Source of the DNA: Rhodobacterales bacterium
GTDB taxonomy: Bacteria > Pseudomonadota > Alphaproteobacteria > Rhodobacterales > Rhodobacteraceae
NCBI GenBank assembly: GCA_038233815.1
Contig: JBBSVE010000001.1
Span: 7,341 to 71,340, forward strand
DNA length: 64,000 nt
Direction of reading: 5' to 3'
Every line of letters begins with the position of its first letter. Position 1 is the first letter of the stretch. Shown piece by piece: positions 7,305 through 51,061 of this stretch. The position numbers were made by a program, and so were the translations under genes. The notes under the pieces are model-generated. The model made no database searches. It was not told the origin of the DNA and saw only the letters and a list, made by a program, of their open reading frames with translations.

Positions 7305-7934
7305 ATGACAACGCCCGTTCTCGCACAGAACCCCCACAAGGTCACGGAGGAGCGTGAGAACGTCCTCGAAGTCGCCATCGGTCGTGAGGTGCGCGCCTTT
7401 CGCCATCAAAGCGCGCTGACCATTGCGGATCTCTCCGCGCGCACGGGTCTGTCGATTGGGATGCTGTCGAAGATCGAGAATGGCAACACCTCGCCGTCGC
7501 TCTCCACCCTGCAGGCGCTGGCCCATGCAATGAGCGTGCCGCTCACCTCCTTCTTCCGGCGGTTCGAGGATGTGCATGTCGCGATCCACACCAAATCCGG
7601 CGAAGGTGCGGAGACGACGCGTCGCGGCACGCGTGCGGGGCACCAGTATAACCTTCTGGGCCATATCGGCGCCAACACGAGCGGTGTGGTGGTGGAGCCC
7701 TACCTCATCACGCTCACATCGGATTCGGATGTGTTCCCGACCTTCCAGCACGACGGGATCGAGATGCTCTACATGCTGGAGGGCGAGGTCGACTATCGCC
7801 ACGGGCACTACGTCTACCGGCTGGAACCGGGCGATACGCTCTTTTTCGACGCCGACGCGCCGCACGGGCCGGAAACCCTGACAAAGCTTCCGGCGCGCTA
7901 TCTTTCGGTCATCTCCTATGTCCAGACCCGGTAG
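7305..7934 (+). CDS. XRE-family HTH + cupin domain transcriptional regulator (PuuR-like architecture)
   Basis: HTH_3 motif (IGREVRAFRHQSALTIADLSARTGLSIGMLSKIENGNTSPSLSTLQALA) plus a C-terminal cupin (GEVDYRHG...GDTLFFDADAPHG). GGAGG lies 6 nt before ATG 7305. Confidence 0.85.
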   Translation: MTTPVLAQNPHKVTEERENVLEVAIGREVRAFRHQSALTIADLSARTGLSIGMLSKIENGNTSPSLSTLQALAHAMSVPLTSFFRRFEDVHVAIHTKSGEGAETTRRGTRAGHQYNLLGHIGANTSGVVVEPYLITLTSDSDVFPTFQHDGIEMLYMLEGEVDYRHGHYVYRLEPGDTLFFDADAPHGPETLTKLPARYLSVISYVQTR

Positions 7935-35490: not shown

Positions 35491-36231
35491 ATGTCCGAGC
35501 CGCACCCCCCGTCGCCGGTCATTCCGCCGACCTCTCCGCCAAAGAAACGCGGGCTCATCGGCGGGCTTCGGGGCAACTTCCTGACGGGGCTCGTGGTCCT
35601 GTTGCCGGTCGGCCTGACGCTCTGGCTGATCTGGACCTTCACGGGTTGGATCGACAGCTGGGTCATCCCCTTCATCCCCACCGCGTGGCGGCCCGAAACG
35701 CTGATCCGCACCTATACCGGCGACCGCTACGTGACCAACGTCCGCGGCGTCGGCGTCATCATCTTCCTCGTCTTCACGGTCGTCGTGGGCTGGGCTGCGC
35801 GCGGTTTGATCGGACGCAGCCTGATCGGGTTTGCGGAACGGCTCGTCGACCGGATGCCGGTCGTCCGCTCGGTCTACAATGGGCTGAAGCAGATCGCGGA
35901 GACGGTGTTCGCCCAGACCGACCAGAATTTCGAAAAGGCCTGCCTCGTCGAATATCCGCGCCCCGGAATCTGGGCCATCGGCTTCATCTCCACCCGCGCC
36001 AAGGGTGAGATCGCGGCACGGTTTCCCCCCGACACGGACCTGCTGTCGGTGTTTTTGCCCACCACGCCGAACCCTACGTCGGGGTTCCTTCTGTTCGTGC
36101 CGGAACGCGATGTGGTGCTGCTCGACATGAAGATCGAGGATGCGGCGAAGCTGATCATCTCCGCGGGGCTGGTGTACCCTCCGGGACAGATCGCGGGACT
36201 GGTCGCCCCTCCCGCCCGTGCCGCAGAATGA
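35491..36231 (+). CDS. DUF502 family membrane protein
   Basis: GLRGNFLTGLVVLLPVGLTLWLIW...VRSVYNGLKQI...LPTTPNPTSGFLLFVP are DUF502-typical motifs. GAGGAGG RBS precedes ATG 35491. Confidence 0.8.
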   Translation: MSEPHPPSPVIPPTSPPKKRGLIGGLRGNFLTGLVVLLPVGLTLWLIWTFTGWIDSWVIPFIPTAWRPETLIRTYTGDRYVTNVRGVGVIIFLVFTVVVGWAARGLIGRSLIGFAERLVDRMPVVRSVYNGLKQIAETVFAQTDQNFEKACLVEYPRPGIWAIGFISTRAKGEIAARFPPDTDLLSVFLPTTPNPTSGFLLFVPERDVVLLDMKIEDAAKLIISAGLVYPPGQIAGLVAPPARAAE

Positions 36232-36261: not shown

Positions 36262-36338
36262 TAAAAAAAGCGCCAGCCGAAGCTGGCGCCAAGTTATTGA
36301 GGCAGGTTCCATACAGGCAAGAAACCTATCGAGCAGTT
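36262..36338 (-). ncRNA. candidate orphan trans-acting sRNA (~77 nt), family not recognised
   Basis: A minus-strand promoter (CTTGGA-N17-GTATAT with a T7 tract just upstream of the -35) lies about 75-80 nt from a textbook terminator (GCGCCAGC-UUCG-GCUGGCGC-U7). An internal 7-bp hairpin AGGUUUC-N10-GGAACCU is complete only on the minus-strand RNA, where it uses a G-U pair that would be C-A on the plus strand. A single-stranded GCCUCAAUAACUU linker lies between the hairpins. No plausible ORF and no upstream minus-strand gene to terminate. Confidence 0.45.
36263..36290 (-). terminator. rho-independent terminator with UUCG tetraloop
   Basis: The plus strand reads AAAAAAA-GCGCCAGC-CGAA-GCTGGCGC, which on the minus strand is an 8-bp GC stem, a UUCG loop and U7. 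It may also stop plus-strand DUF502 transcripts, though only a weak T tract lies on that side. Confidence 0.75.
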
Positions 36339-36344
36339 GTTAAC

Positions 36345-36373
36345 ATATACGCCCTATGTCGCCGAAGTCCAAG
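36345..36373 (-). promoter_or_regulatory. candidate sigma70-type promoter of the orphan sRNA
   Basis: Minus strand -35 CTTGGA (36368-36373), a 17-nt spacer, and -10 GTATAT (36345-36350). Compare the alphaproteobacterial consensus CTTGAC-N17-CTATAT. A T7 UP-like tract lies at 36376-36382. Confidence 0.4.
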
Positions 36374-36436
36374 GCAAAAAAACCTTTCGCGAGGGGAATC
36401 TGCCGATTTCGTAACAGGTGCTACACGGAGCCGGGA

Positions 36437-38272
36437 ATGAGCCTGAGAAAGCGGGTTGATGCGCCAAGGGCATCGCTCGGGGCCGCCATTGCCCTCTTTC
36501 TGGGCGTTTTCTGCGGTCTGGCGCAGGCGGGGCCCGAAAATGGCATAGCTATGTATGGCAACCCCGCGTTACCACACGATTTTGTGTCCTTTCCCTATGC
36601 CAATCCCGACGCTCCGAAGGGCGGACGCATCGTGCTGGGGGAAACGGGGGGATTCGACTCGCTCAATCCCTTCATCCTGAAAGGCCGCGCCCCCGCAGAG
36701 CTTTCCGCGCTGACGGTGGAGACGCTGATGGTGCGCTCCATCGACGAGCCCTTCACGCTCTACGGCGCCCTCGCCGAATCGGTGGAGACGGATGCCGCGA
36801 GGAGCTACGTCGCCTTCACGCTGAGGGACGGCGCGCGGTTCTCCGACGGCAAGCCGGTGACGGTGGAGGATGTGCTCTGGTCCTTCCGCACGCTGGGCAC
36901 GGCGGGCAGCCCCCCGAATCCGCGCTATTCCGCGACCTGGTCCAAGGTGGCGCGGGCCGAGCAGACCGGCCCCCGCACGCTGCGTATCACTTTCACGGAG
37001 CCGGATCGGGAGTTGCCGCTGATCATGGCCGTGCGCCCGGTGCTGGAAAAGGCGCAGTGGGGGGGTCGGGATTTCGCAGCGGGCGGGATGGAGGCGCCCA
37101 TCGGCTCCGGCCCCTACGTCGTGGGCGCGTATGAGGCCGGGCGTTACATCACTTACGTCAAGAACCCTGACTGGTGGGGCAAGGATCTGCCGGTCAATCG
37201 CGGCCGCTGGAACTTCGACACGATCCGCACCGACTATTTCGGCGATGCGGACGTGATGTTCGAATCGTTCCGCGCCGGTGAGATCACCAGCTACCGGGAG
37301 AGCAATGCCGCGAAATGGGTGACGAACTACGATTTCCCCGCCGTCCGGTCTGGCACGATCGTGATGTCGGAGATCCCCCACCATCGCCCGTCCGGCATCG
37401 AGGGCTTCGTGATGAACACCCGTCGCCCGCTCTTCGCCGATTGGCAGGTGCGCGATGCGCTGATCCTCGCGTTCAATTCGGAACTGGCACAGAGGACGCT
37501 CGCGGGGGACGGGGCCCGGCGCATCCAGTCCTATTTCGGCAATTCGGACCTCGGCATGATGCCCGGAACGCCCGCGCCGGGTGCCGTTCGGGCGCTGCTG
37601 GCGCCCTACGCGGCGGACCTTATCCCCGGCGTGATGGAGGGTTACGCAGTGCCCGTGTCCGACGGCAGCCGCGCCAACCGCCGGAACCTGCGCGCGGCCA
37701 CGCGCGAACTGGCGGAGGCGGGCTGGACCAGCGCCGACGGCACGCTGCGGGACAGCCACGGCACGCCGTTCCGGTTCGAGATCCTGCTGACCAACGGTGC
37801 GGCGGAGACCGCCTCCATCGCCGCGATCTATGTCGATGCGCTGAAGCGGCTCGGGATCGAGGCGCGGATCACGACGGTCGATGCGGCCCAGATGAAGGCC
37901 CGGACCGACAGCTACGACTTCGACATGACCTACCTGATCCGCAACATGTCACTGTCGCCCGGCAACGAGCAGACGCTCTACTGGGGCTCGGACGGCGTCG
38001 CCTCTCCCGGCAGCCGCAACCTCATGGGGATGCATGTGCCCGCGGCGGAGGCGATCATTGCCCACATGCTCCGCGCCATCGACCGGGGCGATTTTGTGAC
38101 CTCGGTCAAGGCGCTGGACCGGATCCTGACGGCGGGGCGCTATGTGGTACCGTTCTGGTTCTCCACCGAAGGTCGGATCGCGCATGCGCGCACGCTGCAC
38201 TACCCCGACCGTATCCCGGTCTATGGCGACTGGCCCGGCTTTCAGCCCGATGTCTGGTGGTTCGCGCCCTGA
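36437..38272 (+). CDS. ABC transporter substrate-binding protein, family 5 (peptide/opine/microcin type, YejA-like)
   Basis: Signal peptide MSLRKRVDAPRASLGAAIALFLGVFCGLAQA and a roughly 580-aa SBP_bac_5-type body. GGAG precedes ATG 36437. The track ORF starts at 36356. Confidence 0.82.
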   Translation: MSLRKRVDAPRASLGAAIALFLGVFCGLAQAGPENGIAMYGNPALPHDFVSFPYANPDAPKGGRIVLGETGGFDSLNPFILKGRAPAELSALTVETLMVRSIDEPFTLYGALAESVETDAARSYVAFTLRDGARFSDGKPVTVEDVLWSFRTLGTAGSPPNPRYSATWSKVARAEQTGPRTLRITFTEPDRELPLIMAVRPVLEKAQWGGRDFAAGGMEAPIGSGPYVVGAYEAGRYITYVKNPDWWGKDLPVNRGRWNFDTIRTDYFGDADVMFESFRAGEITSYRESNAAKWVTNYDFPAVRSGTIVMSEIPHHRPSGIEGFVMNTRRPLFADWQVRDALILAFNSELAQRTLAGDGARRIQSYFGNSDLGMMPGTPAPGAVRALLAPYAADLIPGVMEGYAVPVSDGSRANRRNLRAATRELAEAGWTSADGTLRDSHGTPFRFEILLTNGAAETASIAAIYVDALKRLGIEARITTVDAAQMKARTDSYDFDMTYLIRNMSLSPGNEQTLYWGSDGVASPGSRNLMGMHVPAAEAIIAHMLRAIDRGDFVTSVKALDRILTAGRYVVPFWFSTEGRIAHARTLHYPDRIPVYGDWPGFQPDVWWFAP

Positions 38273-50831: not shown

Positions 50832-51061
50832 TCTTCAGCTTCATAGAGGCTGATCGGCGCGCCGGGCATGATCGTGGAGATGGCATGCTTGTAGACGAGC
50901 TGGCTTTGCCCGTCGCGGCGCAGCAGGACGCAGAAATTGTCGAACCAGGTGATGACACCCTGCAGTTTCACCCCGTTGATGAGGAAGATCGTGACCGGAA
51001 CCTTGGCCTTGCGCACATGGTTGAGAAACACGTCCTGCAGGTTCTGCTTGTCGGAAGCCAT
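50828..51061 (-). CDS. hfq: RNA chaperone Hfq
   Basis: [64 protein letters not shown] carries the Sm1/Sm2 motifs. Confidence 0.97.

Follow-up and report, generated by a model that had tools for sequence, protein, structure and literature searches.

The window analysed here, by which we mean the whole 64,000-nucleotide stretch of Rhodobacterales DNA, carries a compact transcription unit on its minus strand at 36372-36263, comprising a sigma-70-type promoter, a predicted start, a 7-bp hairpin, a short linker, and an intrinsic terminator. The unit is situated between two genes on the plus strand: a divergent gene for a family-5 (YejA-like) SBP (36437-38272; Pfam SBP_bac_5, E=3.5e-63), which is not part of the RNA, and a convergent DUF502 gene (35491-36231; Pfam DUF502, E=2.7e-34), which occupies the place usually taken by bdhA. 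An initial sequence-only reading had described the unit as an orphan with no minus-strand gene upstream of it. This holds, as the neighbour on that side is the plus-strand SBP gene and the minus-strand ORFs upstream of the RNA gene are shadows. The RNA gene is present in one copy in this genome. The gene for hfq, which had likewise been placed in the window, is found at about 50849-51061 on the minus strand.

We set the promoter register and the start site, A36337, by aligning the upstream regions of about 185 relatives. In this register, the -35 element is TTGGAC (36367-36372, minus strand) and the -10 element is TATATG (36344-36349, minus strand), with a 17-nt spacer between them and the -10 element 6 nt ahead of the conserved A(+1). 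The promoter had been read from the single sequence as CTTGGA-N17-GTATAT (CTTGGA at 36373-36368, GTATAT at 36350-36345); these elements are present and conserved, but the register is corrected to TTGGAC-N17-TATATG by the alignment. The consensus of 185 distinct upstream regions is cttttcAAAcTTTtagCTTGGa-N17-TATAaag-N5-A(+1)CUGCUCG. Most of them have CTTGG at the same position (TTGG in 167/185), and the -10 hexamer follows the family consensus TATAAA in 107/185, with TATATG occurring in 2/185, this genome included. The T7 UP-like tract proposed as part of the promoter is present but particular to this genome, the relatives carrying CAAACTTTTAG at that spot. Just upstream of the -35 element, the relatives share a conserved TTTCAAAC, which reads TTGAAA on the strand opposite to the RNA and is there 17 nt from a TAGcNT-like hexamer, and for this reason it is probably the -35 element of a back-to-back SBP promoter; this genome lacks the TTTCAAAC element.

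With the start at A36337, the RNA is predicted to be about 72-75 nt long (36263-36337, minus strand, from A36337 into the U-run), and the original estimate of ~77 nt is corrected accordingly, the start being 4 nt further downstream. The transcript opens with a 10-nt single-stranded 5′ tail, ACUGCUCGAU (36328-36337, minus strand), which is unpaired in both the MFE and the centroid folds and is a candidate seed. Hairpin 1 (36304-36327, minus strand), defined by fold and alignment, pairs AGGUUUC with GGAACCU around the 10-nt loop UUGCCUGUAU. It is separated by the linker GCCUCAAUAACUU (36291-36303, minus strand), made up of an invariant GCCUCA and a variable, A/U-rich remainder, from the Rho-independent terminator (36263-36290, minus strand), which has a 9-bp stem, a UUCG loop, and a U7 run. 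The terminator stem, GGCGCCAGC-UUCG-GCUGGCGCU, spans 36290-36269 and overlaps the U7 run at 36269-36263. A 79-nt RNA folds into these two hairpins with a free energy of -26.6 kcal/mol (z=-3.3 relative to dinucleotide shuffles).

The terminator had been called the strongest of the window and oriented to the minus strand, and both statements are borne out. In a consensus scan of the 30-45 kb region it ranks first among terminator-like sites, and when all four T6+ runs of the whole 64-kb window, the only ones it contains, are compared for hairpin stability, the hairpin ahead of this run is by far the most stable (-18.5 vs -10.5 kcal/mol for the runner-up). The hairpin is located 38 nt past the DUF502 stop codon, and it could in principle do no more than end the plus-strand DUF502 mRNA, the promoter hexamers then being due to chance. 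However, the plus strand has A7 ahead of the hairpin and CAAGTTATTG behind it, and therefore no U-tract exists on that strand; DUF502 is the immediate neighbour in just 11 of 167 loci; and conservation on the minus strand extends over the 75 nt that precede the hairpin. With DUF502 a minority neighbour and the U-tract on the strand of the RNA, we reject a DUF502 terminator, and the claim of an sRNA stands against the objection originally raised to it. We regard it as very improbable that the locus is not an RNA gene, whether it were such a terminator or the micro-peptide unit considered below.

Conservation and strand of the RNA

Conservation in relatives is decisive in making this arrangement more than chance. 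A BLASTN search with the 209-bp spacer matched 29 of 41 relatives at 77-93% identity, and in almost all of them the aligned block is query 104-178, corresponding to 36337-36263, which is exactly the predicted transcript, while the flanks fail to align. The 12 non-matching genomes comprise 10 from other families of the class and 2 incomplete assemblies. A covariance model (R1), for which 105 distinct sequences of relatives were used, detects the RNA in 301/301 sampled genomes of the order, representing 113/113 genera, with E values from 1e-24 to 1e-11, and scores the window at 98.4 bits over model positions 1-76; beyond the order, it gives only weak, terminator-driven matches of at most 35 bits. 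The 39-mer 5′ core, CTGCTCGATAGGTTTCTTGCCTGTATGAAACCTGCCTCA, occurs as an exact match in 380 of the 401 genera of the family (one genome per genus) and in 343 of 356 high-quality genomes, and the reversed 39-mer used as a control gives 0 matches.

Scanning named genomes for the exact pattern gave at least 119 records. Among the matches listed, nearly all are named Rhodobacterales or are without an order-level name, and the genera include Paracoccus, Ruegeria, Sulfitobacter, Roseobacter, Yoonia, and Tabrizicola, as well as Leisingera, Thioclava, Rhodovulum, Jannaschia, Amaricoccus, and Neomegalonema. One odd label appears among the matches listed, a 604-bp contig in a Cellvibrionaceae MAG.

The frozen region of the RNA is the entire 5′ 40 nt, with the stem of hairpin 1 included. 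The window agrees with the invariant 5′ domain, ACUGCUCGAUAGGUUUCUUGCCUGUAUGAAACCUGCCUCA, at 39 of 40 positions, the exception being A29->G. Even the lowest-scoring members of the family are identical over the 5′ 40 nt, and their low R1 scores arise because the linker and the terminator diverge. The 5′ tail ACUGCUCGAU is invariant in two alignments, save for U10->G in three sequences of a sister family, which departs only at this position and in the loop of hairpin 1 (GUAUG -> GUGAG). The loop change bears on the possibility of a micro-peptide, because the AUG in hairpin 1 that opens a frame is lost in the sister family; in addition, the frame has no SD, and its length shifts with indels in the linker. 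The linker had been put forward as the pairing seed, and the pattern of conservation fits this only in part: CCUC falls inside the invariant portion, but the A/U-rich remainder is the least conserved stretch of the RNA, with variants among relatives including AAUAACUU, AUGACUU, and AACACCU.

The pattern of substitutions is that of an RNA and identifies its strand. The terminator stem shows compensatory changes at 7 of its 8 pairs in the alignment of relatives, and the stem of hairpin 1 is without any variation across the order and never covaries, so that the covariation looked for in both hairpins is seen in one of them. The relatives have G-U pairs, 13 of them at one terminator position and others elsewhere, and both the G-U pairs and the U-run exist only on the strand of the RNA. 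In this genome, A29->G converts a U-A pair of hairpin 1 to U-G, the plus-strand equivalent of which would be C-A. The G-U pair that had been taken as specific to the minus-strand transcript is thus real, and the alignment identifies it as a rare derived substitution, with U-A in 104 of the 105 aligned sequences and U-G in this genome only. Together, these data show that the feature is an independent RNA gene on this strand under extreme purifying selection, and that the RNA is a single-copy core RNA of the order Rhodobacterales.

The order includes the marine roseobacters, Paracoccus, and the Rhodobacter models, and alphaproteobacterial sRNA biology has been worked out largely in the latter. 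An RNA that each genome of the order carries once and that is frozen over ~40 nt should be among the central post-transcriptional players of the Rhodobacterales, and it has neither a name nor an Rfam family. Several model species can be manipulated genetically (R. sphaeroides, R. capsulatus, P. denitrificans, R. pomeroyi, and D. shibae), and its function is therefore directly testable; R1 could serve for its annotation.

Described small RNAs and expression in Paracoccus denitrificans

No family in Rfam 15 reaches its gathering score on the strand of the RNA, in agreement with the impression from the sequence that it belongs to no named sRNA family. The only matches are sub-threshold, the best being to SorY (22.9 bits) and the second to suhB/MmgR (20.8 bits). 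SorY (RF02651) was rejected as a family for this RNA, the match having E=0.12 and lying far from the gathering score of 111. It resembles the window RNA in being a Rhodobacterales sRNA of similar length, matched over its full length, with a CCUC linker and ACUUGG before the terminator. The 5′ halves of the two RNAs, in contrast, are unrelated, and SorY is transcribed in R. sphaeroides from an RpoHI/HII stress promoter (PMC4615379), whereas the promoter of the window RNA is sigma-70-like.

StsR of R. sphaeroides (RSs0827) was also considered, as an RNA of ~72 nt that is highly conserved, has conserved synteny in Rhodobacteraceae, and possesses its own terminator (PMC8266604). Its ends, deduced from T7 primers, are CCGTTCTACCTTCACTGTC at the 5′ end and GTCAGGGCGCTTTTTTTTT at the 3′ end (PMC8307010, supplement). 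Since both of these primer-derived ends are unrelated to the window RNA, identity with StsR is excluded. The StsR seed, ACUU, is within the first 28 nt of StsR.

The suhB/MmgR match raises the question of whether the RNA belongs to the alpha-r8/MmgR family as a strongly diverged member, or is its functional analogue, limiting PHB through repression of phasin mRNA. MmgR of Sinorhizobium meliloti is Hfq-dependent, PHB-linked, and controlled by PhaR/AniA (PMC8401924), and the family of the window RNA is linked by its position to the PHB-degradation gene bdhA. Both are stand-alone alphaproteobacterial sRNAs of ~77 nt with two hairpins, in which a 5′ hairpin is followed by a single-stranded C/U-rich linker and the terminator, and the Rfam match extends over the full length. 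Its score, however, is half of the gathering score of 41 (20.8 bits, E=0.35), and on this basis membership in RF00519 (suhB) was rejected. The Rfam consensus of MmgR contains UUUcCUCCCU, whereas the window linker GCCUCAAUAACUU is without a CCUCCC-type anti-SD motif, which is replaced by CCUGCCUC. The two RNAs also differ in promoter architecture and genomic context, and the window RNA is restricted to Rhodobacterales. MmgR has an AniA(PhaR)/NtrC dyad between -35 and -10 (PMC8401924); no TGC-N3-GCA dyad is present in the spacer consensus of the 185 promoters, and PhaR boxes are found downstream, ahead of bdhA. Finally, the leaders of 18 phaP genes show neither conserved complementarity to the RNA nor a shared motif, and several RNA-bearing genomes are without this type of phasin. 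An MmgR-like function is accordingly improbable.

Evidence of expression is provided by small-RNA-seq of P. denitrificans PD1222, which yielded 167 candidates including 'sRNA 46' (Gaimster et al. 2016, Front Microbiol 7:1806, PMC5107571, Supplementary Table 1). This entry, CUGCUCGAUAGGUUUCUUGCCU, maps to chromosome 1 at 912922-912944 (+), is intergenic, and peaks at 2088, 915, and 487 reads under the three conditions, with a predicted terminator at 912968-912988, 24 nt downstream (PMC5107571); it is outside the 16 candidates confirmed by RT-PCR (PMC5107571). Its 22-nt sequence is identical to nt 2-23 of the window RNA, and the reads begin at the equivalent CUGCUCG; strand and 5′ end match our prediction. 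We conclude that sRNA 46 belongs to the same gene family, with the same strand relative to the downstream terminator, and that the RNA is expressed, abundantly in all three conditions, in a relative of the organism studied here. In PMC5107571, sRNA 46 is listed only as a 22-nt 5′ fragment and is neither named nor modelled, nor examined for conservation or function. With order-wide conservation, covariation, the promoter, and these reads, the proposal of an orphan promoter-to-terminator sRNA unit on the minus strand is strongly supported.

In the literature that we searched, to which subscription journals were external, no paper naming or characterising the RNA was found, and a mention in a supplement is possible (e.g., in R. 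sphaeroides sRNA lists). The sequence is present in none of the main texts and R. pomeroyi supplements searched, and is carried by the P. denitrificans supplement. Searches on bdhA together with sRNA, on Paracoccus Hfq RIP-seq, and on Dinoroseobacter and Phaeobacter sRNAs returned nothing relevant. The kind of RNA is known, and the family is uncatalogued, and undescribed save for the 22-nt entry in a supplementary table.

Genomic neighbourhood and the positional link to bdhA

In 128 of 139 loci, the window included, the upstream neighbour is the YejA-like SBP gene in divergent orientation. On the other side, 128 of 167 loci have bdhA (at least 66% identical) downstream on the strand of the RNA, as a rule 40-200 nt past the U-run, and the remaining 39 (23%) lack it there. 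In the relatives, the interval between the terminator and bdhA contains a recurring TGC-N3-GCA box (e.g., TTTGCAGGTGCAGCATGG) and promoter-like sequence. The same kind of box flanks phaP promoters, and we take it to be a PhaR box by its likeness to R. sphaeroides PhaR sites. This PhaR-type box and the promoter-like sequence after the terminator imply that bdhA has its own control. The genome studied here has no bdhA orthologue, its best SDR being 38% identical compared with at least 66% among orthologues, and it carries a phaZ-phaC-phaP cluster. Its locus is thus without bdhA, yet the RNA, the promoter, and the terminator are intact. Because this genome has lost bdhA and keeps the RNA, the RNA must be more than a leader of bdhA, and these observations show that the RNA gene is independent of the downstream gene.

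This evidence has to be set against a cis-acting role, in which the RNA would be a bdhA leader (a UpsM-like 5′-UTR sRNA, an attenuator, or a riboswitch) and, in this genome, a relic of the bdhA loss. The frequency, strand, and short distance of the downstream bdhA would fit such a role, as would the succession of an invariant 5′ domain and a variable terminator, which resembles an aptamer with its expression platform. There is also a precedent in Rhodobacteraceae, UpsM, a terminated sRNA in the 5′ UTR of the next gene, upstream of mraZ (PMC8266604). Unlike mraZ behind UpsM, however, bdhA has its own promoter, and the conserved PhaR-type box and promoter-like sequence lie between it and the terminator. 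Absence of bdhA, whether from the downstream position (23% of loci) or from the genome as here, goes along with an unchanged RNA; a relic would be expected to decay rather than to retain promoter, RNA, and terminator, as this genome does. Moreover, the terminator stems vary between species, and therefore the invariant domain cannot form a conserved anti-terminator. In our view, a leader function is about as improbable as the MmgR-like function. The almost universal position of the RNA beside the PhaR-controlled bdhA may point to a connection with the physiology of carbon storage and uptake, and the bdhA and YejA-like SBP neighbourhood is a first physiological lead.

Mode of action and target searches

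Our preferred reading is that of a complete, independent sRNA gene of ~75 nt, most likely encoding an Hfq-assisted, trans-acting base-pairing RNA, to which we assign a probability of roughly 0.6, the mechanism being deduced from sequence features. Transcription from the housekeeping-type promoter TTGGAC-N17-TATATG would begin at A36337 and end at the GC hairpin and U7. The RNA would then act in trans as an Hfq-assisted regulator, binding mRNAs through the invariant 5′ tail, the loop, or the GCCUCA stretch. An Hfq-assisted regulator is rated most likely because the layout fits an Hfq-binding module and because hfq is present. This layout, in which the 5′ tail is free and an A/U-rich stretch leads into a GC hairpin followed by at least 7 U, agrees with the earlier suggestion of the usual Hfq-binding arrangement of A/U-rich linker, GC hairpin, and U7, and a role for Hfq may be expected on these grounds.

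The extent of the frozen region points to a second, less favoured possibility. The 40 frozen positions, with a stem that does not covary, exceed what a 7-12-nt seed needs, and may reflect a partner that is a protein or another macromolecule. The RNA could thus be a protein-binding or structural 'housekeeping' RNA (a decoy, a sponge, or the partner of a machine), with the frozen 40 nt as a recognition surface, an explanation to which we give perhaps one chance for every three given to base pairing. Slightly less probable still is its more specific form, a lineage-specific housekeeping RNA in which an invariant partner, such as a core protein or a ribonucleoprotein machine, would recognise the 5′ domain of 40 nt in its entirety. 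An invariant partner would account both for the identity of 39 out of 39 positions in ~95% of 401 genera and for a hairpin 1 stem that never covaries, whereas the terminator does so freely; such constancy of sequence is unusual even among ribosomal RNA segments. The constitutive sigma-70 type of the promoter, the high reads in all three P. denitrificans conditions, and target searches that gave no signal are in keeping with this explanation. If it is true, the RNA would represent a new, Rhodobacterales-specific class of RNAs that are essential or nearly so. However, the RNA contains no known protein-binding motif, the GGA in its loop being unique to this genome, and in size and layout it corresponds to classical Hfq sRNAs. 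Strong constraint is also possible for sRNAs with multiple targets, which can be strongly constrained, and base pairing assisted by Hfq remains for us the more probable mode of action.

Targets of the predicted base pairing were sought at several levels. An ungapped wobble scan revealed no long complementarity to the RNA anywhere in the genome. The best wobble match besides the locus itself (C47, score 43) is gappy and GC-rich and was judged to be due to chance. The same judgement was made for the only site at which 13 nt match perfectly (C142, 13+7 nt, score 40), which is antisense to a predicted 193-codon ORF, the mRNA of which therefore carries an sRNA-like sense sequence and not its complement. 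The leader of the adjacent SBP gene was rejected as a target, with a mean duplex energy of -28.3 kcal/mol compared with -29.7 kcal/mol for control segments. A sense similarity of 17/23 between hairpin 1 and some SBP starts is at chance level by a rough estimate and is not conserved. Within the phaP leaders, the 9-mer CUGCUCGAU of this genome was likewise dismissed as a target site and attributed to chance, because it is absent from the 17 other leaders examined. Mimicry of the 16S 3′ end, or pairing with it, was also considered; the assembly is without a 16S gene. Across ~3,900 start regions, defined by crude gene calls, seed counts are within about 1-2.4 SD of those of shuffled seeds, and the excess of the linker seed in these regions arises because CCUC pairs with SD sequences.

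Probable divergent promoters of the sRNA and the SBP gene

The sRNA, an RNA of about 75 nt encoded on the minus strand (predicted start A36337, terminator 36290-36263), diverges from SBP, the gene of a YejA-like family-5 solute-binding protein (36437-38272, plus strand). In relatives, a conserved element, TTTCAAAC, occupies positions -36 to -50, immediately 5' of the sRNA -35 hexamer, and its opposite strand reads TTGAAA, with a TAGcNT-like hexamer at a distance of 17 nt. The arrangement suggests that in these genomes the sRNA and the SBP gene are transcribed from divergent promoters placed back-to-back. At 36376-36382 (minus strand), the window carries GGTTTTTTTGC in place of TTTCAAAC, and, judged from this substitution, the SBP promoter of the source genome must differ from that of the relatives. 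The SBP leader itself, aACAAAAcAAGG..GGGATTGTTGCCAAAATG, is strongly conserved in many roseobacter-type genomes (e.g., loci L002, L003, L005 and L006). It maps to the strand opposite the sRNA, some 100 nt 5' of the sRNA start, and its SD-like GGGA stands unusually far from the AUG. The SBP gene of the window lacks this conserved leader.

PhaR-type operators and polyhydroxybutyrate genes

On the other side of the sRNA, most relatives carry bdhA, a 3-hydroxybutyrate dehydrogenase gene, at the place held by DUF502 in the window. Across the homologous loci (L002-L219), a PhaR-type operator, TGC-N3-GCA (e.g., TTTGCAGGTGCAGCATGG and ATGCTGCACCTGCAAA), is conserved 5' of bdhA in many genera, 40-200 nt 3' of the sRNA terminator, which implies that bdhA is a putative member of the PhaR regulon across Rhodobacterales. 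The source genome encodes a phaZ / phaC / phaP cluster outside the window (contig C120, 179-4094) with two CTGC-N3-GCAG PhaR boxes, both overlapping the phaP promoter. A bdhA orthologue was not found in this genome, the best SDR being 38% identical; from its gene content, PHB synthesis and depolymerisation are apparently possible without the usual 3-hydroxybutyrate dehydrogenase.

A 16S-complementary sequence and a probably misbinned sRNA copy

Also outside the window, contig C3 of the source genome contains AAAGGAGGTGATCC (approximately 7776-7788), which is complementary to the 16S rRNA 3' tail over 13-14 nt and is followed a few bases later by CAT (ATG on that strand). The site resembles a small mRNA of the rre type, whose Shine-Dalgarno sequence is extended. 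Among the 303 contigs of the assembly, no 16S rRNA gene was detected with our search motifs.

An exact copy of the sRNA occurs on a 604-bp contig (L124, JAOXRT010000096.1) binned into a Cellvibrionaceae MAG; this contig is most likely a binning contaminant of Rhodobacterales origin.
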